Of a stretch of 64,000 bases of DNA, positions 9,675 to 37,833 are shown one piece after another. Made by a program: the position numbers and the translations under genes. Numbering within the stretch: the first letter of the stretch is position 1; each line of letters starts with the position of its first letter. Under the pieces are notes generated by a model. That model was not told where the DNA came from. It did no database searches and saw only the letters and a program-made list of their open reading frames with translations. The DNA comes from a virus: positions 1 through 64,000 of the IMG/VR virus record IMGVR_UViG_3300034378_000186, one strand, 5' to 3'.

Positions 9675-10382
9675 ATGAGACAAATTATTGAAACTAAAGA
9701 AATCGCAAGAGAAGATTTCGATAGAATGGTCAAATCTGAAGGCCTTGAAACTTTTAATCATCAACAATTTTCTTTATTTACCAGTCAGATAAACAACCTC
9801 ATCCAAAAATCTGAAAACTACGAACAATTATCTGAAGATGAAAAGTCAGAGTTTGAAAAAGCTCAGGAAGAAATTTTATCTTTAAATAAGCATGTGGTAT
9901 TAGATTGGGTAGGAGGAAAGATTGTTAAATCTGCAATGTATACCAGACCAGAACAAGTTGATTGGGAAAGGGATGAAAAGAATGTGGCAGAATTAAAGGA
10001 AGCCAGATCAAAGATTTCTAAAGCTGAAGAATTGGGGTTTAAGATAAATGAGAATAATGAAATTCTTGGTAGTCCTAAACAAATGGCTGATAAACTAAAT
10101 AATAACTTTAATAAAGGTTACATTGATGATAATATGATGGAGACTGCTTTTAGGGAATTGGATGGATTGATAAGTAAGGCAGGAGGACATAAGTACATTA
10201 GAAGGGAAGGAACACCCGGTAATTATCGTTATATTTATACTCTGGAAGACGCAAAAAAATCCCCTTCTACTTCAACCACTAATGATACTAAAGAAAAAAA
10301 ATCTGGAGAGAAACCTAAAGTTAATTTATCTTCTATTTCTTCTCATAAAGAAGGTGGTAGTGATAAAGAATATGGTGAATAA
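9675..10382 (+). CDS. putative internal head protein with KAGGHKYIRREG module
   Basis: Shares ~50 aa with 12647..13636; upstream of portal. Confidence 0.6.
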   Translation: MRQIIETKEIAREDFDRMVKSEGLETFNHQQFSLFTSQINNLIQKSENYEQLSEDEKSEFEKAQEEILSLNKHVVLDWVGGKIVKSAMYTRPEQVDWERDEKNVAELKEARSKISKAEELGFKINENNEILGSPKQMADKLNNNFNKGYIDDNMMETAFRELDGLISKAGGHKYIRREGTPGNYRYIYTLEDAKKSPSTSTTNDTKEKKSGEKPKVNLSSISSHKEGGSDKEYGE

Positions 10383-10428
10383 TAAAAATAATAATTATTA
10401 ACATACGAAATATAAATCTTTCAATAAT

Positions 10429-10932
10429 ATGAAAACAATCGTTTTAAGAAACACAGACAGTTCAGTAAGGGTAGAATACCTGACTGACTTAATTGGAAAG
10501 AATCAGGAATTAACTGTATATACTCAAAATGGAACTCCTAATGGATTATCTGAAACAGAAATAGCTTTAGGTTTAGATTTGGGTGTTGATGAGTATAATG
10601 TTAAGGATGTGGAAGCCTTATCTGAAGAAAAAGAATTGTTTATGGAGATTTATGAAAATGGACAAGATTCATTCTTATTTACTCCTCAAACTTTACCGGA
10701 TGGAAGTAACGGTGTAGGTTATGATAAAACAATCACTCCTTCAGGTGGTGTTGGTGATAAAGTGATGGAAGAACTTACTGGAACTGATTTAGTAGCAGGA
10801 TTATCATTTAATAATGCAACAGGTCAAGTATCTGGAACTCCATCAGCAACAGGAACATGTAAATTGATTGTTAAAGCTACAGATGAAAATGGAGTTTCAA
10901 TAATTTGCGCTTATAAATTTGAAATTGCTTAA
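10429..10932 (+). CDS. Ig-like domain virion protein
   Basis: LPDG..GVGY..SGG..GLSFNNATGQVSGTP..VKATD (He_PIG-like). Confidence 0.7.
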   Translation: MKTIVLRNTDSSVRVEYLTDLIGKNQELTVYTQNGTPNGLSETEIALGLDLGVDEYNVKDVEALSEEKELFMEIYENGQDSFLFTPQTLPDGSNGVGYDKTITPSGGVGDKVMEELTGTDLVAGLSFNNATGQVSGTPSATGTCKLIVKATDENGVSIICAYKFEIA

Positions 10933-10949
10933 ATTCTTTCCTTTTAAAT

Positions 10950-12644
10950 ATGCCTGATAATACCAAACCGGAAAAAAAAGAAAGGACTTTTCAAGAGATT
11001 GATGGAGAAATCGATCGATTGAAGACTGAAAAGTCTCTTCTTTTTAATGATTTTGTTAGTTCAAATGATATTGATAAAATCATCAAAGCTGAAAAGTATG
11101 TAAAAGATAAAACTGGTGTAGGAGGTGGAAACAAAACTCCTGGATTAATTAAGGGTTATCTATTTTCTCCGGAAAGGGAATTCTACACAGGCCTTGGTTA
11201 TAAATCCTCTCTAAAATCAATTACATATGATCTGCTCAGGAAAATGGGTCATGTACCTATTATCCATTCTGTAATATCAACCAGGATTGAACAGATTGAG
11301 AATTTCATGAATTTTAGTAATGATTTTGAAAGGGAAGGATGGACCATAAGGAAAAAGCTTTCAAGGTTTGATAGTTATAAAAAGGATTATAATCTCACAG
11401 ATGTTGATAAAAAGATAATCGAAAAGATTGCTAAATTTTTAGAGGATGGGGGGACTTATAATAAATGGGAGATGACTGATGATTTGGATATATTTATAAA
11501 GAAACTTGTTAAGGATTCTTTAGAATTAGATCAGGCATGTTTTGAAATTGAAAGAAATAGAAGAGGGGATTTACTTGGATTTACTTGTATGGATGGGGGG
11601 ACAATGAGATTATTAGAATCCATAGATGATAAATCAGTTGAAAGGTTAAAGTTTGATAAACAAAACGGATTCCCTCCTATTTATGCACAGGTTCATAACC
11701 AACAGATTTTAAAGAACCATATTACAAAAGAACCAGTAGTTTATTATCCTTGGGAATTATGTTTCATGACCAGAAATAAATCTACCTATATAAGAAGGAA
11801 TGGTTATGGAAAATCTGAATTGGAGATTTTAATGGAGATTATTACTTGGTTGTTATGGGGAATGCAATATAATGGTAATTTCTTTAAACAGGGAAGTAAT
11901 CCAAAGGGATTCTTTACAATTGATGGTGGAGTAGATCAGGATATGTTAAATGAATTTAGATCTGCCTGGAGACAGACAGTTTCAGGTGTTATGAATTCAC
12001 ATAAAATTCCAGTATTTGAAGGAGATAAGATTAATTGGGTAGATATGCAGCATTCTAATAAGGATATGGAATTTCAATTATGGAATGAATTTCTTACTTT
12101 GATTACTTGTTCAGTATTCAAAATAGATCCTTCAGAACTTGGATATAATTTCCGTCAGCAATCTCAATTATTTGGTCAACAAGGACAAAAGGAAAGATTA
12201 GAGCATTCCAAGAACAAAGGATTAAAACCAATTCTTAAATCAGTCCAAAAAGAGGTTAACAAATATATTGTTTCAGAAATGAATGATAGGTTTGAATTTA
12301 TTTGGACTGGTGTAAGCCTGGAAGATGAATCTGAGATGCTTGAAAACGATGTTAAGAAAGCTAATGCAGGTTTTGTTTCTCAGGAAGATATGTTTGAGAA
12401 ATATTCTCACAGAGAATTTGATTCTGAAAAAGATACAATTCTTAATACTGTATATCAACAAGCTCAACAAGCAAAAATGTTTGGAGGAGCAGAAAGTAAT
12501 GAGGCAGTAGATCAGATGACAGGAGAAGAAGGTGATTGGAATCCATTTGATGAATATGAGAAAGCAATGAAAGATAATCCAATTGCTGCTGCCTCCATAG
12601 ATTACATAAATAAATCAATGTTCGATCATTCTAATTCTAAATAA
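10950..12644 (+). CDS. portal protein
   Basis: ISTRIEQ, DSLELDQ, GYGKSELE, FFKQGSNPKG, KDMEF, IDPSELG, SKNKGLKP. Confidence 0.92.
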   Translation: MPDNTKPEKKERTFQEIDGEIDRLKTEKSLLFNDFVSSNDIDKIIKAEKYVKDKTGVGGGNKTPGLIKGYLFSPEREFYTGLGYKSSLKSITYDLLRKMGHVPIIHSVISTRIEQIENFMNFSNDFEREGWTIRKKLSRFDSYKKDYNLTDVDKKIIEKIAKFLEDGGTYNKWEMTDDLDIFIKKLVKDSLELDQACFEIERNRRGDLLGFTCMDGGTMRLLESIDDKSVERLKFDKQNGFPPIYAQVHNQQILKNHITKEPVVYYPWELCFMTRNKSTYIRRNGYGKSELEILMEIITWLLWGMQYNGNFFKQGSNPKGFFTIDGGVDQDMLNEFRSAWRQTVSGVMNSHKIPVFEGDKINWVDMQHSNKDMEFQLWNEFLTLITCSVFKIDPSELGYNFRQQSQLFGQQGQKERLEHSKNKGLKPILKSVQKEVNKYIVSEMNDRFEFIWTGVSLEDESEMLENDVKKANAGFVSQEDMFEKYSHREFDSEKDTILNTVYQQAQQAKMFGGAESNEAVDQMTGEEGDWNPFDEYEKAMKDNPIAAASIDYINKSMFDHSNSK

Positions 12645-13690
12645 AAATGGAAAATTCATTTGTTCAAGAGGTAATTGATAGAAATAATAAAATTGAGAAA
12701 GCTTGGAATGGTAAAGAATCACTTTCTAAAAAAGATCAATATGCCATTGCATATATGACCAATAAAGTGAATGAAAATTTTGAAAAGGGATTAATTGATG
12801 AAGGTATAGTAGAAAAGGCCTTTGAACAATTGGATGATATAATTGAGAAAGCTGGTGGTCATAAATATATCCGCAGAGAAGGAACTCCAGGGAAATATAA
12901 ATATGTGTATGCAGAACCTCATGGAAAATCTGGAGGGTACACTGAAGAATCAGAATTTAAAGAAGGTGATTTTGTTAAATATGGTGACAATGAAATGAAG
13001 GTTACTGAAGTTCAAAATAAAAAAGATGGGATTTATTTAGGGCTTGATCATAGTAAACATTTAATTAATTCAAAATATGTTGAGAAAATACCAAAATCTA
13101 AAGGTTATAAAGATGTTTCTCAATATTTTGATGAGCATATTAATAATCCGCAATCAAAATATTTTAGTAACATTGGGTTAAAAACTGAGGATGTATTTGA
13201 TATGATTGAATATCATGATGCGTATAGGGATTTATATCCAAACTATTCTGATGAAAACGAATATGAAGAAGATTATTATTTTCCAACAATACAAGATGCT
13301 TACAATGATGTTAATGAAACATTAGAGTTTTTTAATACATTACCAAATCCAATACCAATTTATCGCTCAATAAAAATTAAATCAATGGATGATATTAATT
13401 TTGATTATTTAGGTGATTCTTGGTCATTTGATAAACAATCTGCTATTAATTTCGCTAAAAACCAAGCAGGTGGTAATGTATTATTAATTGGTAAAACCAA
13501 ATTTGATAATGTGGATTGGAATAACACAGTAAAATTATGGTATCTATTTTCAAGAATTTATGATGGTTATGATGAAAATGAGATTAACATCATTGATTCT
13601 GATGAAATATTTGATATTAAAACGGAAAGAATATAAATTTGTGTGGTTGGAAAAATAAATCAATGTTCGATCATTCTAATTCTAAATAAA
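12608..13690. repeat. 38-bp perfect direct repeat (12608-12645 and 13653-13690)
   Basis: AAATAAATCAATGTTCGATCATTCTAATTCTAAATAAA twice; duplicates portal 3' end. Confidence 0.95.
12647..13636 (+). CDS. putative head-packaged protein with C-terminal ADP-ribosyltransferase-like domain
   Basis: KAGGHKYIRREG module; IYR...SWS...ENEI pattern (R-S-E ART). Confidence 0.55.
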   Translation: MENSFVQEVIDRNNKIEKAWNGKESLSKKDQYAIAYMTNKVNENFEKGLIDEGIVEKAFEQLDDIIEKAGGHKYIRREGTPGKYKYVYAEPHGKSGGYTEESEFKEGDFVKYGDNEMKVTEVQNKKDGIYLGLDHSKHLINSKYVEKIPKSKGYKDVSQYFDEHINNPQSKYFSNIGLKTEDVFDMIEYHDAYRDLYPNYSDENEYEEDYYFPTIQDAYNDVNETLEFFNTLPNPIPIYRSIKIKSMDDINFDYLGDSWSFDKQSAINFAKNQAGGNVLLIGKTKFDNVDWNNTVKLWYLFSRIYDGYDENEINIIDSDEIFDIKTERI

Positions 13691-16775: not shown

Positions 16776-16795
16776 AAAATATATATATTTGGTAA
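16653..16795 (+). ncRNA. stand-alone omegaRNA
   Basis: CTCGTAAG-GGA-CTTGCGAG hairpin; CGTAT/GTACG; AGCGAC/GTTGCT; TAAGAC and GCTGTGAA shared with 2842-2955. Confidence 0.75.
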
Positions 16796-16815
16796 TTAAT
16801 GGAATTTTTTCGCGA

Positions 16816-17313
16816 ATGAATTTTCAGGATGAAATCAGACAAAAAAATCTTGAAAGGGTTAATAGTATTTATTATCAGTTTATAGAAGATGATCTGAAAA
16901 AATCCTTGTCTACTTCTACTACTTTTGGAGAATCAAAAGATATTTTAGGGAAGGATATAATCAAATCTTTAAATTCTGAATTGGAAAATAAAGAAATTGA
17001 TTTGAATGTGGAAAAAAATAAGATCCAGAAATCCATAAATGGAATTGGAATTCTCCCTAATTGTTACCCTGAAAATTATATATCTGAAAACTGGAAGGGT
17101 CAAATTGATGTTCCCTTTAATATGTATTCATATAGTCAAATTTATTCAGAGGGGAATGATAAGGCCAATATGATGAAATCTTTTAATGATTCTTTGAAGA
17201 GTTTTATATCTGATACTATTAACAATAAAAAATTGGAGATTGTAATTAGTCATATCCCGGAGGATAAGAATTATAATTTACCAATGGGATTAGTTAAAAA
17301 ATTAAATCTGTAA
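16816..17313 (+). CDS. putative head-associated protein
   Basis: In head module; LKKS, IIKS, IQKS motifs. Confidence 0.55.
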   Translation: MNFQDEIRQKNLERVNSIYYQFIEDDLKKSLSTSTTFGESKDILGKDIIKSLNSELENKEIDLNVEKNKIQKSINGIGILPNCYPENYISENWKGQIDVPFNMYSYSQIYSEGNDKANMMKSFNDSLKSFISDTINNKKLEIVISHIPEDKNYNLPMGLVKKLNL

Positions 17314-17317
17314 TACC

Positions 17318-20191
17318 ATGATAGAATTAATAAAAAAAGCTATAGGTCCAATTTCTAAACAAGATAAGATTGATGAATATCTTAAATTGGAAAAGGAATT
17401 GGAATTAAATAAAGCTGAAATAGATCAATTGGCTGAAAGGTATAATAGATTTAATAAGGAATATCAGAATGGATTAGAACAAAATGGGGAAGATGAAATT
17501 ATTAAAAGTAAACTTCAAAAAAGACATGATACTTTTCTTTCTGAATATTTAATAGATCTGGGAAAGGTTAAAAAGAAAAAGGAAAAAATTGATAAAATGA
17601 TGGGACGCCTAATCAAAGGTGAATCTGATATTATTAGTGAAATTAAAGAAGAAAGAAGGGAACAGGCCTTTATGAATATTAAAGGAATGTATAAAGGCGG
17701 AAAAATCAGTGCAAGTAAATATAACCAAATATGTAAGGCAATGAATTCAGGGGTTACTATGTATAGTGATGTTCTGGTTTTTAATAATAAGGGTGAACTA
17801 CTGCTACTAAAAAGAAATGAGAATGCTTCTTATGAACCTGGAGTTTATTGTTTGCCTGGTGGTCATGTTGATCCAGGGGAATCACATGAACAGGCTGGTT
17901 ATAGAGAATTGATGGAAGAAACTTATTTAACTCCTGGAGATTTAGATCATATAGGGGAATTGAAAAATAAAGATGTTCATATTTGTTATTACAGATGTGA
18001 TTTATTTGATAATGTGTATGATGCTGGAGATCCAGTAATCACCCTACAACATGACGAACATACTGATTTTGAATGGGTGAATCCTTTTGAATTAAGGGAT
18101 TATAAAATGATCAAAGATTCTCAAAATGTTGTATTTGATATTTTATATCCTCATCATAAGGAGGTTGTTAAAATAACTAAATCTTTCCTTACAGGGGAAG
18201 TTAATGAAGATATTTATTTAAGGACTTTAGAAAAGGCAGGATATAAGGATAAGATTGAGGCAATCAAAAAAATGAAAGATCCTGATAATATTTCAGGAGG
18301 GGTGGCAGATGGTAAAACTATAAAAGATGTAATGGATAAATATAATCTTTCAGAAGATGATGTAAAAAAGATTTGTGAGGAAGGCACCAAACATGAAATG
18401 GAACATACTGATGATGAGAATATAGCAAGGGAGATTGCCAGGGATCATATTTGGGAAGATAAGGACTATTATAAAAAACTAAAAAAAATTGAAAAATCTG
18501 ACAATAATTCTAATCCAATAGAAAATACTGTAAAGGAAAGTTTAAAGGTTTTGGTTGTATGTCACAATCAAGGGGTGATACCTCAATCAGTTTTAGAAAA
18601 GGCAATTCAAAATGCTGATGAGATTTTAAAAAGTAATGATTGGACAATTGAAGAATTGGAAGATCAAATGGAAAAAGAGGGATTGTTTGAAAAAGCAATT
18701 ACTATTCAGGAAGATGACATCATTGAACAGGATTCAGTATATGATGAATTTGATTTATATAAAGCCCTTGATACTACTAAACTTGTTTCAAAAAAGGTTA
18801 ATATCCAAAGGAAAGATGGAACTTCCTATATGGCTATTCGTTGGGTGAATCCTGATACAGGGGAATCTTATAAATTTTATGGAACACCTCCAGATCAGGT
18901 AGAATCTGTGGAACAACTTCAACAATTGATAGATTCAGATATGCCTAATGTCAAGAAATATAAAATGATGATCGATGCAGGTATTTATAATAAACATATG
19001 CTGGCAAGGTTAATTAATACTACTCCTTCTAATGCATATCAATATCTCAAACAATCAGATTTTACAGGGGATCAAATTAAAAAATTTTCAGCAGAAAATA
19101 TGGGAAGTGGTATTGTTCCCCCTGCAGAAATAAATGAAGAAACTGGAGAGATTGAAACAGATCCAGATCTTGCCAGTCAAATTGAACAGGAAATCCAGGC
19201 TTTAATTGAGGCTGATGGTTTGAATTTTGATGATTCAGATCTACATAAAATAAATCCTCAAACAGGTAAAGATGTAGTTGATACTGTAATGGATAAGTTT
19301 GTGGATATGGTTGCTAAAAAAGAAGCAAAACTTGCAATGTTTTATGGTACTGGTGGAGTTGGTAAAACTTATGGGGTGAAACAGGTTCTTACTAATCCTG
19401 AAACAATCAATGGAGATACAGGTGAACCATTTGGTAACAAATTGGTAGAATATGAGGCAGAACTTCAACCAAATGAAGATCAATATGATTTCATTAAAAT
19501 TACCGGAAAAGTTTCTCCTTCTAAACTTTATAAAACATTATATGAACATAATGGGAAACTCCTTATGATTGATGATGCTGATGCAGTACTGGAGGATGGA
19601 ACAGCAATTGATATGTTAAAGGGTGCCACTGATACTACTTTGGAAGAAATTTCATGGGATGGTCAACCTATTAAATTAACTGATGGATCTGGTAATGTTC
19701 CTATTAGGTTTAAATTTACAGGGGGTGTGGTAATCATATCAAATCTTTCAGAAAAGAAATTAAGGGAATATGCTCAACCACTTTTGGAATCTAGGGTACT
19801 TTCCTTGGATGTTTCCAGGACGATGGAAGAAACCATTGATAAACTGGATAGGATTAAAGATAAAATGCCATTTGAGGATCGTGATGGTAATCCAATTGAG
19901 GTATCTCAAAAACATAAAGATGTTGCAATTGAATTCATTAAAAAATATAAGAACCATATGCCTGTTGTTCAGGTAAATGGTAGGACATTAGGAAAACTTG
20001 CTCTGATTCATAAAAGAGAATCAAGGAATTATAAAACTGATGTAGATTTTTATAAATCTTATGCTGCCAGATCTTTAATGAATGTTAAAGATCACCAAAT
20101 TAAGGCATTCCATAAAAACAGATTATTGGATGAGGTTAAACAAAGAAAGCAACAAAAATTATTGGTTGATTCTATAAATAATAAAATGTAA
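17318..20191 (+). CDS. multidomain protein: NUDIX hydrolase, HExEH (DUF5661-like) domain, P-loop AAA ATPase
   Basis: GGHVDPGESHEQAGYRELMEET; HEMEHT..AREIARDH..YYKKL; GTGGVGKT, LLMIDD. Confidence 0.85.
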   Translation: MIELIKKAIGPISKQDKIDEYLKLEKELELNKAEIDQLAERYNRFNKEYQNGLEQNGEDEIIKSKLQKRHDTFLSEYLIDLGKVKKKKEKIDKMMGRLIKGESDIISEIKEERREQAFMNIKGMYKGGKISASKYNQICKAMNSGVTMYSDVLVFNNKGELLLLKRNENASYEPGVYCLPGGHVDPGESHEQAGYRELMEETYLTPGDLDHIGELKNKDVHICYYRCDLFDNVYDAGDPVITLQHDEHTDFEWVNPFELRDYKMIKDSQNVVFDILYPHHKEVVKITKSFLTGEVNEDIYLRTLEKAGYKDKIEAIKKMKDPDNISGGVADGKTIKDVMDKYNLSEDDVKKICEEGTKHEMEHTDDENIAREIARDHIWEDKDYYKKLKKIEKSDNNSNPIENTVKESLKVLVVCHNQGVIPQSVLEKAIQNADEILKSNDWTIEELEDQMEKEGLFEKAITIQEDDIIEQDSVYDEFDLYKALDTTKLVSKKVNIQRKDGTSYMAIRWVNPDTGESYKFYGTPPDQVESVEQLQQLIDSDMPNVKKYKMMIDAGIYNKHMLARLINTTPSNAYQYLKQSDFTGDQIKKFSAENMGSGIVPPAEINEETGEIETDPDLASQIEQEIQALIEADGLNFDDSDLHKINPQTGKDVVDTVMDKFVDMVAKKEAKLAMFYGTGGVGKTYGVKQVLTNPETINGDTGEPFGNKLVEYEAELQPNEDQYDFIKITGKVSPSKLYKTLYEHNGKLLMIDDADAVLEDGTAIDMLKGATDTTLEEISWDGQPIKLTDGSGNVPIRFKFTGGVVIISNLSEKKLREYAQPLLESRVLSLDVSRTMEETIDKLDRIKDKMPFEDRDGNPIEVSQKHKDVAIEFIKKYKNHMPVVQVNGRTLGKLALIHKRESRNYKTDVDFYKSYAARSLMNVKDHQIKAFHKNRLLDEVKQRKQQKLLVDSINNKM

Positions 20192-20377: not shown

Positions 20378-21424
20378 ATGGAAAATACTAAAGATCAAGA
20401 ATTTGGTTTACCAGATACAGCAGTTGATATTCTGAATAAAGGATTACAAGACGGGGTTTTAAAAGAGGATATTATATTTAAAGGTAGGGTAGAAATAGGA
20501 AAAGTTAGGAATTGGGGTGGAAGGGAAATGAAAAAAGTTGCTGAAGGAAAATGGGTACCTGTTAAAGAAGGGAAGAAAGGAAAGAAAGAGGAAGATTCAA
20601 AGAAAACAGATCAACCTAAAAAAGAACTTCATGAACATGCTCAATCTGCATCTGAGGGAGCTTTACAATCTGCAGCAAAAAATGCAAAGGATTCTGAAGT
20701 GAGAACTGCTGCTAATACAGAACTGGATAGAAGGGATAAACAAGAAAAGGTTGAATTTGATGAATCTAAAAAAGATGAAGATTCTGTATTATCTACTAAA
20801 GTAAAAGAATACAGGAACAAAATAAAAGGATGGTCTGATAAACAGAAAAGTTTTTTTAAAGAGGGTCATCATAAACCAGGATCTGAGACAAGAAGAGGGT
20901 TAGCTAAATTATTAAAAGATAAGGGAGCAGGTATTGTTAAAGCTGTAAAACATGAAATTGATGATTTCAAAATGGCAGGGATAGCAATTGGTAAAATGTT
21001 CAGTGGTAAAAAACCGGATAAGAAAGAAATGAAAGCTTTAAAAACTGCTGGAAAACATTTGGCTTTGACAGTGGGTACTATTGCTTTGACTGGTGGAACT
21101 GGTCATTTAATCCATAAAGGAGCTGCTGGAGCTTTAAAAGGATTATTCACTCATTATATGGAACATGTGGGGGCTACTACTTTAGGAAGGGCTTTAATAT
21201 TTGCGAGTGATGATCAGGATTTTCCTGAAGAAGAATATAATGCTGAAGAAATGTTTACTCAATTATTAATGGGGTTTGCAGAATATTTAGAGAATTCAGA
21301 TATACCAATTGATGAATGGGTTAATATAATTGGACAAAATGAAGAGAGTGAAGATGAAGCTGCATTAATGGAAGCTTTGGAAGGGGAAGAGGAAGATACT
21401 ACATTAGAAAAAGAAAAATTATAA
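20378..21424 (+). CDS. putative internal head protein
   Basis: IFKG then GKVRNWGG..KKVAEGKWV; Gly/Ala-rich hydrophobic segment. Confidence 0.55.
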   Translation: MENTKDQEFGLPDTAVDILNKGLQDGVLKEDIIFKGRVEIGKVRNWGGREMKKVAEGKWVPVKEGKKGKKEEDSKKTDQPKKELHEHAQSASEGALQSAAKNAKDSEVRTAANTELDRRDKQEKVEFDESKKDEDSVLSTKVKEYRNKIKGWSDKQKSFFKEGHHKPGSETRRGLAKLLKDKGAGIVKAVKHEIDDFKMAGIAIGKMFSGKKPDKKEMKALKTAGKHLALTVGTIALTGGTGHLIHKGAAGALKGLFTHYMEHVGATTLGRALIFASDDQDFPEEEYNAEEMFTQLLMGFAEYLENSDIPIDEWVNIIGQNEESEDEAALMEALEGEEEDTTLEKEKL

Positions 21425-21426: not shown

Positions 21427-22284
21427 ATGAAAACAATAGGAAAAGACGATTTTAATTTCTTTATCCCTGTTGAATTTGAAAAAGCAGGTAAAACTGATAA
21501 AGATGGATTACCTGAAAAATTATTTATCAAAGGTGTTGCAAGTACCAGTGATGAAGATTCAGATAGAGAAACCCTTGAACCAAGTGGATATGATTTAAAT
21601 AGGTTCCTTAGGTATGGATTTTTAAATCTGGAACATAAGGCAAAGCAAGATCATAGTTTTATTGTGGGTGAACCAGTTGATGCTAAAGTTGTAAATAATG
21701 AACTTGTTTTAAAGGGATTATTATATAAATCTAATCCAAAGGCTGTTTCGATATGGAAAACTGCTGAAATGTTAAAATCTGAAGGATCAAAAAGGAAATT
21801 AGGGTTTTCAATTGAGGGGAAAGCAATAGAAAGAGATCCTTCTAATCCAAGAAGAATAACTAAAGCTGAAATTACCCATTGTGCCATTACTGCTTCTCCT
21901 AAAAATGTAAATACATTTCTGGATATTATGAAGGGGGAATATGAAGAAGCATTCATAAATCAGGAGTTTGATGATTCAGCAGATGGAGGGGCTGTTTATT
22001 TATTAGATCTAACAAAACCTGATGGTACCAGGATTATAGTTGATAAAGAATTCAATATTACTGTAAATAAGGCCATGAATGCAGGTCATCAAACTGGTAG
22101 AGAATTAACAGGTAAAAATACAAATGGGGCGGCTTTAAAGACTGAATCCCTGGATAAGAAGATGAGAAATCTTCAATATGAATTTAAAGAGGCAATTGTA
22201 AAAATTGCTGATCAACATAAGAAAAAACCATTTAATGATGAAATTTTGAAAAAAATTAAAAATAATATTAAAAAGTTTTTTTAA
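21427..22284 (+). CDS. prohead (maturation) protease
   Basis: IKGVAST..D.D.E, NLEH, LGFSIEG, CAITASPKN. Confidence 0.9.
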   Translation: MKTIGKDDFNFFIPVEFEKAGKTDKDGLPEKLFIKGVASTSDEDSDRETLEPSGYDLNRFLRYGFLNLEHKAKQDHSFIVGEPVDAKVVNNELVLKGLLYKSNPKAVSIWKTAEMLKSEGSKRKLGFSIEGKAIERDPSNPRRITKAEITHCAITASPKNVNTFLDIMKGEYEEAFINQEFDDSADGGAVYLLDLTKPDGTRIIVDKEFNITVNKAMNAGHQTGRELTGKNTNGAALKTESLDKKMRNLQYEFKEAIVKIADQHKKKPFNDEILKKIKNNIKKFF

Positions 22285-22355: not shown

Positions 22356-23075
22356 ATGAAAAACGATAATAATAAAATCGAGAATCCGGAACTCATAAAA
22401 GCTCTCCAAACTATATTTTCTGAAGATGAATTAAAAGAAATGGAAGCTGATCTTTCCAAGGCTGAAAAAGCTGAAGTAGAAGTAGAAATTAATTCAGAAG
22501 AAGAGGAAGATGATGATATGGAGAAGGCTTATAAAAAAGCTGAGGCAGAAGCTGAAGAGCTTGAAAAAGCTTTGAAAGCTAAATCTGATGAATTGGCTGG
22601 ATTAAAGGAAAAAATGAAAAAGGGTTGTGATGCGAAAATTGAAAAAGCTGAAAAAGAAGATATTTCTTTTGAAGTAAATGATGACTTGAAAAAGGCATTA
22701 GAAGAATCAACTGCAAGGAATGCTGAAATTCTTAAATCTGTTCAGGACCTCCGTGAGGAAAATCAACAGATGAAAGAAGAACTTCAAAAAATTGGTAATC
22801 AACCCCAGGGGAGAAAAGGTTATCAAAATTTGAATGTTATTGAAAAGGCTGATGGATCAATACAGGATGAAGATTCTGGTAAAACTATTCTTTCAGTTAA
22901 AAAGAACAAAGGTCAGGTTGAAAAACTAATGGACACTGTTATTAAAAAAGCTGAAGATCCTGAATTGAAAACAAAATGGGAAAATGAACTTATCGGTTTT
23001 AATGCCGGTTCAGCTCCTTTCTCAAAATCTCTGCAAAATGAGATTGAAAAAGAGGGTGTTATTTTAACTGCTTAA
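22356..23075 (+). CDS. scaffolding protein
   Basis: Acidic coiled coil between protease and capsid, many KA/KS/KG sites. Confidence 0.8.
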   Translation: MKNDNNKIENPELIKALQTIFSEDELKEMEADLSKAEKAEVEVEINSEEEEDDDMEKAYKKAEAEAEELEKALKAKSDELAGLKEKMKKGCDAKIEKAEKEDISFEVNDDLKKALEESTARNAEILKSVQDLREENQQMKEELQKIGNQPQGRKGYQNLNVIEKADGSIQDEDSGKTILSVKKNKGQVEKLMDTVIKKAEDPELKTKWENELIGFNAGSAPFSKSLQNEIEKEGVILTA

Positions 23076-26084: not shown

Positions 26085-26531
26085 ATGAAAACTTTAGAAA
26101 TTTTTTTATTTAGTATCTTACAGGTAGATACTACAACTGCTTTGAAAGATATGTCTTTCAAAGAATTGTTTTTTGGAGATCAATTAAGTGGAACACTTAT
26201 TCTTTTTTCATATTTCTTGTTTTTCCTTGGGATTGTGTTAACAATGTTTTTGGATGTTAGATTGGCAGCAATCAATACTAAAAGGAAAAAGGGGGTTTGG
26301 AAATTTACCTGGAAATATTGGTGGAAGGATAATAGCACCCGGTTTATTTTTAATATATTGGTAGGGGTGATTGGTTTATATGTTCTTCTTAGATTTCCAA
26401 ATCAGTTTATGGAAAAGAGTTTTGAAATTTGGATGCCTTTAGTAGCAGGAGCAGGTTTAGATCTATTTATTATAGTTCTAAGAAGGTTCACCAATATAAA
26501 TATTTTCAATAATAAGCAAGTTTCAAAATAA
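26085..26531 (+). CDS. three-TM membrane protein, holin candidate
   Basis: Three hydrophobic segments. Confidence 0.5.
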   Translation: MKTLEIFLFSILQVDTTTALKDMSFKELFFGDQLSGTLILFSYFLFFLGIVLTMFLDVRLAAINTKRKKGVWKFTWKYWWKDNSTRFIFNILVGVIGLYVLLRFPNQFMEKSFEIWMPLVAGAGLDLFIIVLRRFTNINIFNNKQVSK

Positions 26532-27370
26532 TGTCAAAGGCTATTACAAAATCAGCTCCACCCAACTTAGTTGGGCAACCAAGTGTTAAGTTTGATCTTG
26601 ATACTTTTGAAGCTGCTTTGTGGAATAAAGGATATGATATTATTCTTGAAAAGGCTGTTAGATGTCCTTGTCAGGATAGGGATGCTGCGGCTAAATTAAC
26701 TTGTCATAATTGCCTGGGAACTGGATGGGTGTTTTTAAATGCTCTTCAAACTAAGGCAATTATAACAGGTATAAATAAAACAACTGCTTATAAAAATTGG
26801 TCACAGGAACTTTTAGGAACTGTTGCTGTTACAACAAGGGCTGTTGAAAAATTGGGTTTTATGGATAGGATCACTTTAATTAATGATACTAATACCTATA
26901 ATACTTCTATTTATTCTGAAATATTAAGGGTGAGAGATGTTGCAGGAACTCCTTTTGTATTTCTGAGTTATAAACCTTATGAACTGGAAAAAATGAAGGT
27001 TTATGCTTTCCAAGGGGATGAATTACCTCTTATAAAACTTCCTGTTTCAGGATATTCGATAAGTTCAAATAATCCTTATGTATTGGAATTTTCTTATGAT
27101 TTTTCAACTATAGGATCTTTTAATGGGATAATTAGTGTTACTTATGAGCATGAAATTCAATATCATATTTTGGATTTGCCTCATGATGTTAGAAATTCAA
27201 CAACAGTTAATGCTTGTGGGCAGGAAAGGCAAATTGAATACCCTATTAATGCGATAGCCAGGAAAGCCCATAATGTATTTGAAAAAGCTGATAGGGATGG
27301 AACAGGATTAATTAATAATTCAGATCCAAACTTTGAAGGACCTGAAATTGATGATAATTGTAAAACATAA
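26531..27370 (+). CDS. neck/head-closure protein
   Basis: EKAVRCPC..CHNCLGTGW..LGFMDRIT. Confidence 0.7.
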   Translation: MSKAITKSAPPNLVGQPSVKFDLDTFEAALWNKGYDIILEKAVRCPCQDRDAAAKLTCHNCLGTGWVFLNALQTKAIITGINKTTAYKNWSQELLGTVAVTTRAVEKLGFMDRITLINDTNTYNTSIYSEILRVRDVAGTPFVFLSYKPYELEKMKVYAFQGDELPLIKLPVSGYSISSNNPYVLEFSYDFSTIGSFNGIISVTYEHEIQYHILDLPHDVRNSTTVNACGQERQIEYPINAIARKAHNVFEKADRDGTGLINNSDPNFEGPEIDDNCKT

Positions 27371-31999: not shown

Positions 32000-33466
32000 A
32001 TGAAAAGAATATTGTTTTTGTTGATATTATATCTACCATTATTTTTATATGGTCAAGATTATAGCGATAATAAGGTTATTGATATTAATCCTGGAGGTGG
32101 AGGAGGTCCTGACAGCACGTGGGTAACCATAACTACTGACACATTAAAAGTTAATGAACACCTGGAAGTCAGTGGAACTGCCACAATAGCAGAAATGGAA
32201 GTGACCGGCGCATCGTCGGTCGACGCCAACTTCTCGATTACCGGGGAGAACTATATGAGCCTCGACTATTGGTTAGAGAGCGCATTGCCGAGTTCCTCCA
32301 GTGGACCGAAATCCTTTATCGCGTCCAAGACAGACGGGGGTGGCAACCCTTATCTGTGGCACGTACAAGACCTTGGCACGTATAAGATACTGGACGAGTA
32401 CTACTTAGAGGTGGAAGGTGCCGGTCTGGTGAAGTACTTCACACCAACAGGCACGAACGACCTGGCGGAGTTCGAGCTGTACTGCACGTACCAGATGGCC
32501 AAGGGACAGCCTGCGTACATATACGACCCTAGCGACAACGGACTGGACATACAGTACCCGTCGGCGACTGGCAAAAGTTACAACAGACTGCCGTGGATCG
32601 GCGTGTCAACGGACGGGGACGACGCTCCACGAATTAGGATAGATAGCGGAACGCTGTTCAGCCAGATGGGAATAAAGAACTTCAGCATAGACGTGTTCGG
32701 TGACATAACGATACACTCGTACGGCGCGGAGATGGACTTCGCCAACGTCTACATCAAGAAGAACGCCAAGATAACGATAAGTGGCTCGGGCAAGTTCAAG
32801 TTCTACCGGCTCAAGACCTATTCCTCGACCGGGATAAGCAGGATGAACATAAAAAACATGGCTAACATGTACATAACTTACTTCTTGACCGTCGGCCCCA
32901 GCGGCATAGACTTGCAGATAGAGGACGGCGGGGTGCTCGACATAGGCAAGGGCGACGACAAAGTGGAGATTCACGTGGGATACAACTTAGGAACGCCACA
33001 GAACGACGCGAGGCTCAGCGTCGCGGATTACAACAACATAGACTCGGTGGTCGTCCACGGGGACAGGTGCATAGTGGAATTAACGAACTGCGACGCACTG
33101 GACATCAGACCCACAGCGGACGCAACGACTGTGATAGGAAACGGCAACGTCGTGAACGACGGAGGAACTAACAGCGTAATCCTGGAGGACATCGCTGATG
33201 GCAAGATGCCGGCCGACACGTCTTCGCTGGGCGAGACCATACCCCGCATGAACGAGCTGGTGTACAAGCAGAAGGGCAACGGTATAACCACCACGCTCTG
33301 GGCGAGTCCCGAGGAGGGTGACAACCTTGTGATAATAAACAGGGGCGGTGGCAGCAACACGATTTCGGGAAACGGGAACAACATCGAGGGGTCGGCGACC
33401 ACGACGATTAACGACGACGAGAGCTTCAGCCTCGTGTACATTAACGGCGAGTGGCTGATATATTAA
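32000..33466 (+). CDS. fibre-like protein with signal peptide, high-GC body; C-terminus paralogous to 27376..31170
   Basis: ..LFLYG-Q; DTSS..YKQK..GITTTLWASP.EGD..NRGGGSNTI.GNGNNIEGSATT..GEWLI in both. Confidence 0.75.
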   Translation: MKRILFLLILYLPLFLYGQDYSDNKVIDINPGGGGGPDSTWVTITTDTLKVNEHLEVSGTATIAEMEVTGASSVDANFSITGENYMSLDYWLESALPSSSSGPKSFIASKTDGGGNPYLWHVQDLGTYKILDEYYLEVEGAGLVKYFTPTGTNDLAEFELYCTYQMAKGQPAYIYDPSDNGLDIQYPSATGKSYNRLPWIGVSTDGDDAPRIRIDSGTLFSQMGIKNFSIDVFGDITIHSYGAEMDFANVYIKKNAKITISGSGKFKFYRLKTYSSTGISRMNIKNMANMYITYFLTVGPSGIDLQIEDGGVLDIGKGDDKVEIHVGYNLGTPQNDARLSVADYNNIDSVVVHGDRCIVELTNCDALDIRPTADATTVIGNGNVVNDGGTNSVILEDIADGKMPADTSSLGETIPRMNELVYKQKGNGITTTLWASPEEGDNLVIINRGGGSNTISGNGNNIEGSATTTINDDESFSLVYINGEWLIY

Positions 33467-33514
33467 AAAACTTTATTAAAAATTAAATAATTACTAATTT
33501 AAACATAACAGAAA

Positions 33515-34081
33515 ATGAAATCAATTAAATTATTTATTATCGCATTAATTAGTTTGGTAACTTTTACAGTCGAAGCCCAAATGAGCGATAGTGCAATGGC
33601 TGTTTATGATTCTGCAGTTTGTCAGGATGCAATTAGTGATATTGGTAATCCTACATGTGCTAAATATGTAGATTATTTATATTATAATTGGAAAGGAGAT
33701 GTAAATGATTTTGATTCTCTTGAACAAATTAATTTTTGTACAGTAACAGGTACTTTAGTAACTGTTTATGGTGCTGATACTGTTGCATTAATTATTACAT
33801 GTCAAATAACTCAGGGTACTCCTGCAAGATTATTTAATATGAGTTTTAGTAAAAATAAAAGGAATGTTATGAATTTTGCAGAATTATTTACTTATTTTAT
33901 TGATTATTCACAAACAGGTTTAGATAAGGATTCTTTAATAGGAGAAAATGTTTATGGGTATGAGGTAGAGAATGGTAGAAAAAGAACAGGTACATTAGTA
34001 TATATAAATACTGAGGAAAAATATGGAGTAATTGAAAGAGGGAATAGAACCTACAAATGCAATTTATTTACTATCCACTAA
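33515..34081 (+). CDS. secreted hypothetical protein
   Basis: Signal peptide ..TVEA-Q. Confidence 0.65.
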   Translation: MKSIKLFIIALISLVTFTVEAQMSDSAMAVYDSAVCQDAISDIGNPTCAKYVDYLYYNWKGDVNDFDSLEQINFCTVTGTLVTVYGADTVALIITCQITQGTPARLFNMSFSKNKRNVMNFAELFTYFIDYSQTGLDKDSLIGENVYGYEVENGRKRTGTLVYINTEEKYGVIERGNRTYKCNLFTIH

Positions 34082-34287
34082 TGAGGTGGATAGTAATAAT
34101 ATTGGTTCTTTGTTTCTGTTCTTGTGTTAATCAATATCATGTTTTTCATGTGAATAGAAAATTCAGTGGTGAGGTTGAATATATTTTTATGAAAGGTAGG
34201 AAATCGATCACTGTAAAAACTGATACAATGCCTTATAAGAAAAATGAATTGATAACTTTAAGGCAAATCAAAAAGTTGGAAAAATGA
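34081..34287 (+). CDS. small lipoprotein
   Basis: MRWIVIILVLCFCSC. Confidence 0.55.
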   Translation: MRWIVIILVLCFCSCVNQYHVFHVNRKFSGEVEYIFMKGRKSITVKTDTMPYKKNELITLRQIKKLEK

Positions 34288-34487
34288 AACCTCCTAAAAA
34301 AGGAAAAATAGTAACAGGGGTAACGTTATTTAATATTTTACTTATTGCTGCTGTAACGGTGATAGGAGGTTTATTTATATGACGGAGCGTAAAACCAATT
34401 CATCGCTTTAGCGTGGATTGGATGTAAGCGACTTACTCTTCACTTACATTTTGTAATTTTGTAAAAGTTTAGACTATTTAATAATAT

Positions 34488-36395
34488 ATGCTTAAAGGAT
34501 TAAAATATCGCATTTACCCAACCAACTCACAAAAAGAGTTAATAGCCAAACATATTGGTAGTAGTCGTTTTGTGTATAACCTTGCATTAGAAACAAAAAA
34601 TACAGCATATTTAGGTTCTAAACATAACTTTTCTCCTTTTGATTTAATTAAGCAACTATCTGAACTTAAAAAAGAATATCCTTGGCTTAAAGAGGTTAAT
34701 AGCCAATCTTTACAGCAAGCTATCCAAAATATGGATATTGCTTTTAAGAAATTCTTTAAAGGGGCTGGTTTTCCTAAATTCAAGTCAAAGCATAGAGGAA
34801 AACAATCTTTTTCTATTCCACAAAATGTAATAGTAGAAAATGAAAAGTTAATTATTCCTAAATTCAAGGAAGGAATCGAAATTGTTTTGCACAGACCTAT
34901 TGAAGGAACAATCAAAAGTGCAACTATTAGTATTACTTCAACAGGGAAATACTTTGTTTCAATATTAGTTGAAACCAGTAAAGAGAAACCAAGTAAAGCA
35001 CCTATTAAAGAAAAAACAACTATTGGTATTAAGTTAGGCGTATTCCCAAATATGTTTTCTACAAATAATTTTTCCGTTAGCCCATTGGCTAATAGACGAT
35101 GCGGAACTTCCAGTTCCTCTACTGGCAGCAGTGCAACTCTCCCAAACAGCAATGATTTCTCCTGTTTCCTTGCTTCTTTGAATGACTTTCTTCTTGGAAG
35201 CCGCCCAAGCAGCTTGATGCAGTTTGGATATATGCTCGGCACTACGTTTTGCCCCCTTATTGGCTTTAGATATTTTTCTTCTTGTTTCAGCAGAGTGCGT
35301 TTTTCCAAAAAAGCCATTAAATTCTCCAACTCTGGTTTTAGCGCGGTTAGAAATAGCAGCACATTCGGATTGAGTTCTTTTTCTCCCCAAAGTGCTTCTA
35401 TGGGGTACGGTGCAAATATTATAGCCGAATTTCTTTTCGTTACTCCTAAAGAAGGAAATCCAAAAGCATTCTCTATCTTGAAGGCTTGCGTAATCCTCGA
35501 CAACTTCGATGATTTGGAAATCAAAAGCATCCCATCCGTACTTAGCAATAGCCTTGTAAAATGGAAAGTTGCTTTGCAAGTTCCTTTTTCTTCTGTGTTC
35601 AGCAAATCTAAGTTTGATATTGACGGATTGCCCAATGTAGCATTTACCGTTGATTGTGTTTCTGAAGATGTAAACTCCAGATACAGATGGGATGTCTTTG
35701 AACCTTGTTTGCATATTGCAAAGATACAAAAAGAAAACGATTTAAAACCTAATTGTTCAAAAAAAGACTTAGGAATAAAATCGTTTTTAGTTACTTCTGA
35801 TGGAGAAGAAATTGATAATCCCAAATACTTACGAAAAGCACAGAGTAGATTAAAATATGTACAACGTAAATATTCAAATAACAAAGGCAAGCGCACTAAG
35901 AAAAAACTTGCTAAGCTACACGAAAAAGTAGCTAACCAAAGAAAAGATTTTCTACATAAAACCTCAACTAAACTGATTCGTGAGAACCAAACGATAGCCA
36001 TTGAGGATTTAGCGGTTGCTAACATGGTCAAGAACCATAATCTTGCACAGGCAATTAGTGATGTTAGTTGGTCAACCTTTGTTTCAATGTTGGAATACAA
36101 AGCTGATTGGTATGGTAAAAATATCTTACAAATAGGACGTTTTGCACCATCATCAAAGACTTGTTCTTGCTGTGGGTATATCAATAAAGAACTAACACTA
36201 AAAGACCGTGAATGGACTTGTCCTAAGTGTAATTCTGTACTTGACCGTGATGTGAATGCTGCTGTTAACATTAAATCATTTGCATTAAAAAATATCTTAT
36301 CTGGAACGGATAGGAAAACTCGGAACGAACTGCCTCGGTTACGAGGAGTGTTGACTTCCGAAGCCCAACCCATCGGCTCTGCCGTGGGTGGGTAG
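34488..36395 (+). CDS. tnpB: TnpB with a 245-codon in-frame insertion directly before RuvC-I Asp (probably inactive)
   Basis: KTTIGI [735 nt] DLGIKSFLVTSDG; IAIEDL; DRDVNAA. Confidence 0.85.
   Translation: MLKGLKYRIYPTNSQKELIAKHIGSSRFVYNLALETKNTAYLGSKHNFSPFDLIKQLSELKKEYPWLKEVNSQSLQQAIQNMDIAFKKFFKGAGFPKFKSKHRGKQSFSIPQNVIVENEKLIIPKFKEGIEIVLHRPIEGTIKSATISITSTGKYFVSILVETSKEKPSKAPIKEKTTIGIKLGVFPNMFSTNNFSVSPLANRRCGTSSSSTGSSATLPNSNDFSCFLASLNDFLLGSRPSSLMQFGYMLGTTFCPLIGFRYFSSCFSRVRFSKKAIKFSNSGFSAVRNSSTFGLSSFSPQSASMGYGANIIAEFLFVTPKEGNPKAFSILKACVILDNFDDLEIKSIPSVLSNSLVKWKVALQVPFSSVFSKSKFDIDGLPNVAFTVDCVSEDVNSRYRWDVFEPCLHIAKIQKENDLKPNCSKKDLGIKSFLVTSDGEEIDNPKYLRKAQSRLKYVQRKYSNNKGKRTKKKLAKLHEKVANQRKDFLHKTSTKLIRENQTIAIEDLAVANMVKNHNLAQAISDVSWSTFVSMLEYKADWYGKNILQIGRFAPSSKTCSCCGYINKELTLKDREWTCPKCNSVLDRDVNAAVNIKSFALKNILSGTDRKTRNELPRLRGVLTSEAQPIGSAVGG
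35034..35714 (-). CDS. GIY-YIG homing-type endonuclease with NUMOD3/NUMOD1-like DNA-binding motifs
   Basis: SGVYIF.N.INGKCYIGQS.N...RF..H; GYN; FFGKTHSAETRRKIS. Confidence 0.92.
   Translation of the reverse strand: MQTRFKDIPSVSGVYIFRNTINGKCYIGQSVNIKLRFAEHRRKRNLQSNFPFYKAIAKYGWDAFDFQIIEVVEDYASLQDRECFWISFFRSNEKKFGYNICTVPHRSTLGRKRTQSECAAISNRAKTRVGEFNGFFGKTHSAETRRKISKANKGAKRSAEHISKLHQAAWAASKKKVIQRSKETGEIIAVWESCTAASRGTGSSASSISQWANGKIICRKHIWEYA
35719..35726 (-). promoter_or_regulatory. Bacteroidota -7 box for GIY-YIG gene
   Basis: TATCTTTG 4 nt before ATG. Confidence 0.7.
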
Positions 36396-36463
36396 TTCAC
36401 TGAACGTAGGGTTTCAGATGCAGTTTAGGATTAAAAAAAATAAATCTAATTCTTAATTAAAAG

Positions 36464-36862
36464 ATGATTGATATGACTCCAGAAGACAGACGATGGTTAG
36501 AAGAAATGGTAGGAAGAATTTCGGATAACATCGAAAACAATAAAGAAAATATTGATTTAAGAATCTTAGGGTTGTCTGGAGAGATGAAGAGTAATTTTAA
36601 CTTGACCAATTTTCAACTTGAGGAGATAAAGAAACAGGTTATATTGACAAACAGTAGGGTTAATAAATTGGAAGAAAAGGAGAAAGGATCTTATCCAAGA
36701 TTGGTTGCTGTTGAAAAAGAAATGAAAGGGATATTAAAAGAAACTGAAGAAGTTAGATTTTTTAATCGTCATCCGAGATTTTTAAAATTAATTCTTTGGT
36801 TGATAGGGTTAATATCTGCCGGATCTTTTGCTTTACAGATTATTCAGAAACTTATAAAATAA
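36464..36862 (+). CDS. coiled-coil protein with C-terminal TM (lysis-module, holin-like)
   Basis: Directly upstream of amidase. Confidence 0.5.
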   Translation: MIDMTPEDRRWLEEMVGRISDNIENNKENIDLRILGLSGEMKSNFNLTNFQLEEIKKQVILTNSRVNKLEEKEKGSYPRLVAVEKEMKGILKETEEVRFFNRHPRFLKLILWLIGLISAGSFALQIIQKLIK

Positions 36863-36868
36863 GTAATT

Positions 36869-37564
36869 ATGGATCTAACTAAATACAAAAATGTTCCAAG
36901 GGAATATCTAAAAGGAGATTCTAGGACTTGTCAGATCATAGATAATGGTCATGGAGGCATGAAAGATTATAAAAGATATGATTCTCCTTTAGCTTATTTA
37001 ACTCCTGAAATATATGGTAAAAAGGCAAATCATTATACCCATATATTTTTCGAGGGGACATGGAATAGGATTGTAGCTCTGGAAATTGCAAAAGTCTTAT
37101 ATGATATGAAATTGAATTATAAGATTATTGTTCCAGAGGAAGAAGATGTTTATTTATCAGAAAGATGCAGGAGGGCAAATGAATTTGCAAGTCAACATCT
37201 GAATCTTAAAACATTCTTTCATTCTATTCATGGTAATGCTTTTGGTTTAGAATCTGTAAAAGGTATTGAAGTTTACACTTCTATTGGTACCACAAAATCG
37301 GATGAAATTGCTACTATTTTCTATGAAAAATATAATGGTTATATTGGTTGGAATATGAGATCTGATTGGTCTGATGGTGATGCAGATAAGGAAGCAAAAT
37401 TTACTGTACTTACTCAAACCAATATGCCTGCTATTTTAAGTGAACTTGGTTTTTATACTAATCCTGATGAATGTTTGGAAATGTTACAAACCAAAAATAT
37501 TAAATTGATTGCAGAAACTATCGGTAAGGCACATAAGGAGCTTGAGGATAATAAAATATTGTGA
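36869..37564 (+). CDS. endolysin, N-acetylmuramoyl-L-alanine amidase (Amidase_3)
   Basis: IDNGHGG, FE, SIHGNA, PAILSELGFYTN. Confidence 0.92.
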   Translation: MDLTKYKNVPREYLKGDSRTCQIIDNGHGGMKDYKRYDSPLAYLTPEIYGKKANHYTHIFFEGTWNRIVALEIAKVLYDMKLNYKIIVPEEEDVYLSERCRRANEFASQHLNLKTFFHSIHGNAFGLESVKGIEVYTSIGTTKSDEIATIFYEKYNGYIGWNMRSDWSDGDADKEAKFTVLTQTNMPAILSELGFYTNPDECLEMLQTKNIKLIAETIGKAHKELEDNKIL

Positions 37565-37614
37565 AATTTTTCTTATATTTATAAATTAAAATCGGTTTTT
37601 AAAAAACTAAAATT

Positions 37615-37833
37615 ATGCAAGATTTTGAAAAAGAATTAAAACTGCGCAGAATTCAAGAAAGGGATCATATTGAAAAATCAACAGAAGAAAATCTGTATGA
37701 AAATCAAGCAAAAGCCCGTAAAATTCAAGATCAAAAAATTCATGCTTTGAATGTAATTCAAAAGGCTGTGAATGAGGGAGAACTTGAAAAGGATGTTTTT
37801 ATGAAGGCAGTTGGGAAAGTTGTTAATAATTAA
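37615..37833 (+). CDS. small putative head protein
   Basis: IEKS; IQKAVNEGELEKDVFMKA module. Confidence 0.55.
   Translation: MQDFEKELKLRRIQERDHIEKSTEENLYENQAKARKIQDQKIHALNVIQKAVNEGELEKDVFMKAVGKVVNN

Follow-up and report, generated by a model that had tools for sequence, protein, structure and literature searches.

This work concerns a 64,000-nucleotide (nt) stretch of viral DNA, positions 1 to 64,000 of IMG/VR record IMGVR_UViG_3300034378_000186 (the entire stretch is called the window below), which comes from a large uncultured phage with SPO1/Twort-type head genes. Our analysis supports that a real shared element links cargo-like proteins of the head gene block of this phage, and the conserved core of this element is an I-x-K-A motif together with a downstream hairpin, not the 19-amino-acid (aa) helical unit on which an earlier note on this DNA had centered. 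With slightly better than even confidence, we judge that the proteins encoded between the portal and capsid genes would be head-internal cargo cassettes with a leader, a lysine-type protease site and a tag, a counterpart of the phage T4 capsid targeting sequence (CTS) with a lysine-type signal. The idea of the earlier note, that a shared tag loads diverse cargo into the prohead and that protease cleavage then releases it for injection, would fit this anatomy.

The class-1 module and its family

Two genes, g9675 and g12647, carry the element in the form referred to here as the class-1 module (arrows in motifs mark predicted or aligned cut positions).

10083..10241, + strand: class-1 module of g9675 (aa 137-189), with a helix-turn-helix, the site L-I-S-K168↓A169 and the hairpin HKYIRREGTPGNYRYIY (10188-10238)
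12755..12913, + strand: class-1 module of g12647 (aa 37-89), with the site I-I-E-K68↓A69 and the hairpin HKYIRREGTPGKYKYVY (12860-12910)

Over the shared module, the two proteins are identical at 33 of 53 residues (BLASTP E=2e-21). Because the nucleotide identity is only 64%, with different codons at 18 of the 33 identical residues, the likeness is held by protein-level selection. As the earlier note had observed, an identical KAGGHKYIRREGTPG follows two of the segments that it quoted. Within an identical 15-aa stretch of g9675 and g12647, 13 of 45 bases differ and every difference is synonymous, which rules out recent duplication or gene conversion as the origin of the identical residues.

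The class-1 layout is an acidic helix-turn-helix ending in I-x-K-A, followed three residues later by a basic, Tyr-rich hairpin of the form HKYIRREGTPGxYxYxY; the leader consensus reads LNxNFxKGLIxEE..AFxQLDxLIEKA and that of the hairpin HKY[IF][KR]REGxPGNY[KR]YxY. In both proteins, a hydrophobic-x-K-[A/S/G] site stands four residues before KY, as L-I-S-K↓A-G-G-H-KY in g9675 and I-I-E-K↓A-G-G-H-KY in g12647. A hidden Markov model (HMM) of the hairpin scored g9675 at 4e-17 and g12647 at 6e-16, and these were its only two matches among the open reading frames of the window and of the entire 80.8-kb parent record. The mean net charge was -2.0 for leaders and +3.6 for site-plus-hairpin stretches, 99% of which were positive. 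An AlphaFold2 model of g12647, with block-mean predicted local distance difference test (pLDDT) scores of 77-94 across residues 31-90, contains helices at 28-46 and 52-69, the second ending in K68-A69, then a loop and strands at 74-78 and 85-88; in this model, K68-A69 would lie at the helix end, before an exposed loop. A fold search of the module model against the PDB gave nothing below E=4.

When the module profile was compared with 1.84 billion representatives, 270 cluster representatives were obtained at E<=1e-3; g9675 is identical to cluster representative P0003, and module profiles scored it from 2e-12 to 3.5e-27. The lysine stands exactly four residues before KY in 125 of 176 instances, and among the 176 the lysine site is K-A in 112, K-S in 33 and K-G in 25. 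Among the residues flanking KY, I or L occupies position -7 in 118 and H occupies position -1 in 144. The module lies inside the first 120 residues in 115 instances (65%), and some proteins begin with MxYxIIEKA-RPH-KY. In long proteins, two or three copies are placed between Pfam domains that are typical of phage polyvalent proteins, namely MuF, MuF_C, ddrB-ParB, PBECR2, ART-PolyVal and RelA_SpoT. Internal copies retain the form of an N terminus, including the Met of a former start (for example, MKYVIIEKARPH-KY), which suggests that cassettes have been fused and split. As a separate observation, protein P0080 begins with M-A-R-T-K-KYIRREG, exactly at the residue after the predicted cut, and upon removal of its Met it would mimic the predicted mature end.

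The hairpin is carried by 43 IMG/VR viral loci, and in 35 of them the hairpin gene stands beside homologues of the portal, MuF, protease and/or capsid protein of the window. It often begins directly after MuF and is sometimes fused to it, and in three loci (L032, L038 and L040) the hairpin lies within the portal protein itself. Fusions also involve two proteins of the window listed below, g17318 and g20378. In the close relative L005, a 1,887-aa protein encoded before the protease consists of the g17318 N-part, three class-1 units, a GNAT-like stretch and the g20378 C-part; P0069 fuses g17318 and g20378 homologues, with true hairpins at the joints; P0148 fuses a window-type MuF domain (residues 1-291, matched by the window MuF-like protein at E=5e-29) directly to L-K-K-A-V-G-H-KYIRREG and about 1,080 aa of cargo; and the ATPase part of g17318 stands behind a canonical leader in P0037, P0082 and an L003 protein. 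Because these relatives fuse the same parts, the window holds a split version of their polyproteins. The g20378 C-part forms the polyprotein C terminus in relatives, and a homologue of g16789, another gene of the block, is located directly upstream of the L005 polyprotein gene. Among species-representative genomes, only four loci were found, all from metagenome-assembled genomes, which means that prophages do not commonly carry the motif.

Lysine sites in the head proteins and two further tags

Every gene within 8-64 kb of the window is on the + strand. The parent record is 80.8 kb long and about 73% complete, and the nearest named relatives of the phage have Bacteroides and Chryseobacterium hosts. 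The genes that bear on the lysine sites are as follows.

9675..10382, + strand: g9675, 235 aa; conserved N-domain, class-1 leader and hairpin, short S/T/K-rich tail
10429-10932: small protein encoded after g9675 and before the portal gene, carrying a He_PIG Ig-like domain (5.6e-8)
10950..12644, + strand: portal protein (PF04860, E=1e-20)
12647..13636, + strand: g12647, 329 aa; class-1 leader and hairpin at the N terminus, followed by a putative cargo domain of about 240 aa
14852..15763, + strand: MuF-like minor head protein (PF04233, E=3.9e-5, under the Pfam cut-off; PHROG head morphogenesis)
16789..17313, + strand: g16789, 174 aa; 4 K-S sites versus 0.8 expected
17318..20191, + strand: g17318, 957 aa; polyvalent-type protein
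20378..21424, + strand: g20378, 348 aa; short leader, I-I-F-K35↓G, class-2 tag, C-part
21427..22284, + strand: head maturation protease (phrog_1028, E=4e-49)
22356..23075, + strand: acidic scaffold-like protein, between the protease and capsid genes; homologue in L005
23148..24656, + strand: major capsid protein, SPO1/Twort type (PF17236)
37615..37833, + strand: g37615, 72 aa; leader ending in V-F-M-K64↓A with nothing after it, in the lysis/neck region, outside the head block

In a head set made up of g9675, the portal protein, g12647, g16789, g17318, g20378, the protease and the scaffold, the tetrapeptide [LIVM]xK[ASG] occurred 51 times versus 13.8 expected (3.7-fold, P<0.001). As controls, 12 tetrapeptides in which P1 or P1' was changed or the pattern was reversed or shifted occurred at 0.6-1.4 times expectation, the exceptions being h-x-D-[ASG] (1.85 times) and h-x-x-K-[ASG] (1.66 times). 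For single proteins, the counts were 5 versus 1.07 expected in g9675 (P=0.0025), 13 K-[ASG] sites versus 4.0 in g17318, 6 versus 1.4 in the protease and 10 versus 1.46 in the scaffold, which the earlier note had rightly described as rich in K-A, K-S and K-G. None of the other genes of the window was enriched at P<0.01, with 26531-27370 and g37615 being nominal (P~0.03). The same sites were enriched in the scaffold-position, protease and several cargo genes of six relatives (L001, L002, L005, L006, L015 and L026; a single scaffold-position gene and a single protease among these reached only P=0.03-0.04), as well as in the cultured Herelleviridae phiIPLA-RODI and SP8; the L005 polyprotein contains 21 sites versus 8.4 expected.

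The capsid protein does contain the LMKA to which the earlier note had pointed, within D-L-M-K28↓A29 (K at 23229-23231). Its identity is 33-37% to the capsid proteins of Bacillus phages CP-51/SP8, Bacteroides phages DAC19-23 and a Chryseobacterium phage, with Kayvirus more distant, and the N-arm pattern L-x-K-A-[LM]-x-A-G is invariant in the window and 14 relatives (15 sequences). The aligned Kayvirus site is D-V-V-K24-S25 (residues 21-25), and the chains of PDB 9row comprise residues 25-463; because they begin at residue 25, cutting after the N-arm lysine is documented for a relative, which supports the statement of the earlier note that head proteases of this type process at such lysines. 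By alignment, we infer that the capsid protein of the window would be cut at K28↓A29, and the K-A/K-S/K-G signal probably matches the specificity of the SPO1/Twort-type head protease. Literature searches for lysine cleavage in Twort-like phages returned nothing relevant. The capsid protein of Listeria phage A511 loses 23 residues. At the sequence level, the leader site is of the capsid maturation type within this one phage, as the capsid protein has D-L-M-K↓A, the protease V-N-K↓A, g12647 I-I-E-K↓A and g9675 L-I-S-K↓A.

A further observation concerns the protease, whose C-terminal tail (~22060-22164, repeat family D15) copies the capsid N-arm (23220-23330), cut site included. The tail reads V-N-K215↓A-M-N-A-G-H-Q-T-G-R..GAALKTESLD and the N-arm L-M-K↓A-M-N-A-G-D-Q-T-G-R..GAALKTESLD. 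This mimicry recurs in L005, L007, L015, L017 and L026, more weakly in L004 and L010, and in cultured Kayvirus and SP8, and it may be a route for building the protease into the prohead and releasing it later.

Two other tags were found behind such sites. The class-2 tag of g20378, RVEIGKVRNWGGREMKKVAEGKWVPV (20486-20572), comes after I-I-F-K35↓G and follows the pattern IGxVRxW..GKWVPV, the site I-I-F-K↓G being followed in g20378 by RVEIGKVRNWGG..GKWVPV. Iterated searching (jackhmmer) gave 40 domains of this class among the fetched proteins and loci, with h-x-K-[GAS] preceding the tag in most rows with alignable upstream residues; within the window, the class-2 HMM gave E=1.7e-22. The class-3 tag became apparent from g37615, which stops in the window just after its K-A and lacks about 90 codons relative to its ortholog in G001, the genome of L005 (L050, G001 74714-75200). 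This ortholog, of about 160 aa, has V-L-N-K↓A followed by about 95 aa that begin with the class-3 tag GVYKDTPYNRKHGRVG and continue into a further C-part. The pattern Y.D...NRKxGRVG occurs after such sites in seven other proteins, including one of the cultured Bacteroides phage DAC19; this protein, DAC19_202, is encoded beside the MuF gene and opens with V-N-K-A and then Y.D...NRKLGRVG. Altogether, three unrelated tag classes each stand 2-5 residues beyond a hydrophobic-x-K-[A/S/G] site.

The proposed cassettes, a possible uncut binding domain and known systems

The proposed cassette runs from a leader, mostly acidic and helical, through a hydrophobic-x-Lys↓Ala/Ser/Gly site and a short basic tag 2-5 residues further on to an enzyme domain. 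In the window, g9675 and g12647 have the full class-1 form and g20378 the class-2 tag, with bare sites at domain borders in g17318. The leader, or a link to MuF or the portal, would bring the protein into the prohead, where the prohead protease would cut the cargo after lysine just as it would cut the capsid protein, the scaffold and the tail of the protease itself; sequence comparison supports this lysine specificity. The acidic leaders would then depart with the scaffold fragments, and, more speculatively, the basic tag would become the new N terminus and might hold the enzyme on the DNA or the capsid wall until ejection.

The main rival, which we regard as rather unlikely, is that the class-1 module is an autonomous, uncut domain that binds DNA, the portal, MuF or the capsid wall, with K-A serving as a helix cap and the site enrichment reflecting only scaffold and protease turnover. 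Such a domain would account for several family members of 98-123 aa that comprise little beyond the module, which may accordingly have a function of its own, and for the minority of hairpins that lack the lysine (for example, G-E-R-P-G-H-KY); the strongly basic and aromatic hairpin and the compact helix-turn-helix of the model, with K-A as its last helical residues, would suit it as well. Against it, two further, unrelated tags have this site grammar ahead of them, the site equals the capsid maturation site, and the cargo itself, g17318 and the L005 polyprotein included, is enriched; moreover, polyproteins of 1,900 aa with multiple enzymes need separating, and no peptidase domain was found in them. 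Together with the short and the lysine-free members, further points weigh against cargo cassettes. The conservation of I-x-K-A and of its spacing to the hairpin could have a structural cause, namely a helix cap plus a strand; giant cargo proteins show no enrichment in L006 (2,912 aa, 11 sites versus 10.6 expected) and L015 (1,895 aa, 6 versus 7.2); and since the conserved domain of g9675 precedes the site, it is ambiguous there which part is "leader" and which is "cargo". The leader, the hairpin and the MuF link each remain candidates for the address, and tblastn searches of GenBank phages with g12647 and with the class-1 hairpin gave no match.

More tentatively, and with less confidence than for the cassettes of the window, the same grammar may be a general cassette code for SPO1/Twort-type heads, and probably for others with Lys-cutting proteases, in which a leader and a hydrophobic-x-K↓A/S/G site are combined with an interchangeable basic tag (the KY-hairpin, IGEIRxW..GKWVPV or Y.D...NRKLGRVG), polyproteins are sliced into injected enzymes with N-terminal anchors, and cassettes are shuffled, fused and split. 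The tag families are conserved, widespread and, within the literature searched, undescribed. If the cassette reading is true, the injected protein set and its mature ends could be read from sequence in a large group of uncultured phages, it would be explained how polyvalent proteins that lack a peptidase domain are taken apart, and foreign proteins could be loaded into capsids by means of a portable tag. The idea is directly testable because the cultured phage DAC19 carries one such tag beside its MuF gene.

The closest functional parallel is the CTS of the T4 proteins IPI-III and Alt, which is removed by the prohead protease gp21 (Mullaney and Black 1996, cited in PMC12991175). As in T4, the leader is short and N-terminal, and its last residues form the signal at which the head protease cuts the capsid protein. 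T4 packs unrelated cargo, enzymes included, into its head and delivers this cargo along with the DNA, and the same is proposed here. The signal here is hydrophobic-x-Lys↓Ala/Ser/Gly, in contrast to the T4 cut after Leu/Ile-x-Glu; the heads are of the SPO1/Twort type, a conserved basic tag follows the site, and the cassettes are often strung into polyproteins. T4 is not known to have such a basic tag after the site.

Phage-type polyvalent proteins (Iyer, Burroughs, Anand, de Souza and Aravind 2017, PMC5512222) combine several enzymes, have their genes among the late or head genes and show a link to MuF or the portal; that paper proposes that they are processed by an embedded metallopeptidase domain, which is frequent but not universal in the family. 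Like them, g17318 has at least two effector-type domains and is encoded between portal/MuF and the protease; in relatives, these parts are joined to MuF (P0148) or to the portal (L032, L038 and L040), and MuF, ddrB-ParB, PBECR2, ART-PolyVal and RelA_SpoT proteins occur. The parts of g17318 are a coiled-coil N-part, a NUDIX domain (aa 152-266, 3.7e-18), a DUF5661 domain (aa 353-393, 3.2e-9) and a P-loop ATPase-like C-part (aa 464-956, phrog_1250, 2.4e-23). At the thresholds used, no peptidase family was detected in g17318 or seven scanned relatives. The junction motif (I-x-K-A plus HKY..YxYxY) was absent from the results of term searches, in which the motif itself was not queried, in PMC5512222 and in Jamet 2017 (PMC5576092, on MuF toxins), and literature searches with motif strings gave no relevant paper.

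With the Herelleviridae (Kayvirus, PDB 5lii and 9row; SPO1 Gp6.1, PDB 9vel), the window shares a homologous capsid protein, the succession of a protease gene, a gene for an acidic scaffold-like protein and the capsid gene, a scaffold and protease rich in the same tetrapeptide, and the aligned capsid site, V-V-K24↓S25 in Kayvirus. The portal and protease genes are adjacent in the L046 and L047 stretches (~8 kb each), with no cargo block between them, unlike in the window, and the class-1 hairpin is unmatched in the GenBank phage set. In giant phages (SPN3US gp245, phiKZ type), the prohead protease likewise recognizes a short motif in many proteins of the head interior, which are cleaved there and ejected into the host (PMC10052503, PMC7411985). 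No shared tag is reported for those phages, and their capsid lineage differs. Prohead proteases of this giant-phage type cut after Glu.

Weaker helical segments and other features of the window

The earlier note had treated seven helical segments as copies of one module, and all seven are present in the genes that it named.

10092-10148, + strand: segment of g9675
12764-12820, + strand: segment of g12647
17675-17740, + strand: segment a of g17318, ending in I-C-K140↓A-M-N-S-G just before the first NUDIX strand
18170-18238, + strand: segment b of g17318, ending in T-L-E-K306↓A before DUF5661
18548-18604, + strand: segment c of g17318, with V-L-E-K428↓A
20429-20485, + strand: segment of g20378
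37753-37809, + strand: segment of g37615

As one module, the seven held up only in part: g9675 and g12647 are homologous over it as described above, and no profile retrieved the other five. With HMMs of the helical part built from 76 external copies, g12647 (2e-17) and g9675 (2e-12) were recovered, and the other segments appeared only at E=0.13 to 3.8, with 0.13 for segment b and 1.7 to 3.8 for segment c; segment a and g37615 were not retrieved by the module HMMs. It is about an even bet that, apart from this pair, the shared module is a by-eye pattern in helical proteins rich in Lys, Glu and Ala and that the five segments are unrelated. Leave-one-out HMMs of the 19-23 aa segments never retrieved the left-out member, the HMMs from the 76 external copies gave the non-significant E values stated above, and a pattern for the unit of the earlier note, written after its examples had been seen, precedes just 3 of the 176 true hairpins. 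In the structure model of g17318, which covers residues 1-470, segment c is poorly modelled (pLDDT <50 at residues 395-420, block means 36-59 for 401-430), with its K-A inside a helix. On the other side, the weak segments lead the sub-threshold list of the independent profiles, and segment b is predicted as a helix at 280-291, a turn and a helix at 297-306 ending at K306 (block-mean pLDDT 83-87), which is the shape of a true leader; segment a, less surely and at low confidence, is modelled as a helix, a Gly loop and a helix, with K140 near the first NUDIX strand. L005 carries short units of the same shape directly ahead of true hairpins, and its counterparts of segments a and b end in I-C-K-A and I-V-K-A. 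A Gly-turn with K-[ASG] 8-14 residues further on was found 7 times versus 2.6 expected (P~0.009) for a pattern that was set post hoc. A by-eye pattern would leave the site enrichment and the class-1 and class-2 tags untouched. For the five weak segments, the best reading is that of helical linkers with a protease site at their end, placed at domain borders in g17318, rather than that of module homologues.

The label "SHOCT-like" given to these segments did not hold. That the helical unit is a diverged SHOCT domain through which the proteins oligomerize is very improbable; K-G-[LI]-I-x-E-E bears only a loose resemblance to the SHOCT consensus, and neither the seven segments at E<=10 nor 45 family members at E<=1 matched Pfam SHOCT (PF09851), the segments are N-terminal or internal rather than C-terminal, and the fold search with the module model described above found no match. 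Apart from these comparisons, the L005 polyprotein (6953-12616) contains at about aa 308-335 a Cys-rich stretch, PCWEGYEQYGTKKKDGKEVPNCV, directly after the K-A of its segment b, and this stretch has the look of a further short element conserved in proteins of this kind.

A perfect 38-nt direct repeat (family D11), a copy of the 3' end of the portal gene, flanks g12647 at 12608-12645 and 13653-13690, and from this bracketing the g12647 cargo cassette looks inserted or exchangeable. The C-terminal domain of g12647 had no Pfam or PHROG match and no named family in the ESM Atlas; an identity as an ADP-ribosyltransferase was considered and is unsupported by all three resources, thus unconfirmed. 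An Rfam scan of the window gave no match. In the TnpB gene at 34488-36395, the HTH (aa 1-41) and OrfB_IS605/TNB (aa 427-595) regions are split by a Pfam-unmatched stretch of at most residues 42-426, throughout which the reading frame stays open. The opposite strand of this region holds an open frame of 628 aa, and GC content is raised to 0.39 in the corresponding 4-kb bin (32001-36000). A separate 105-aa TnpB C-terminal fragment (9000-9317) immediately precedes g9675.

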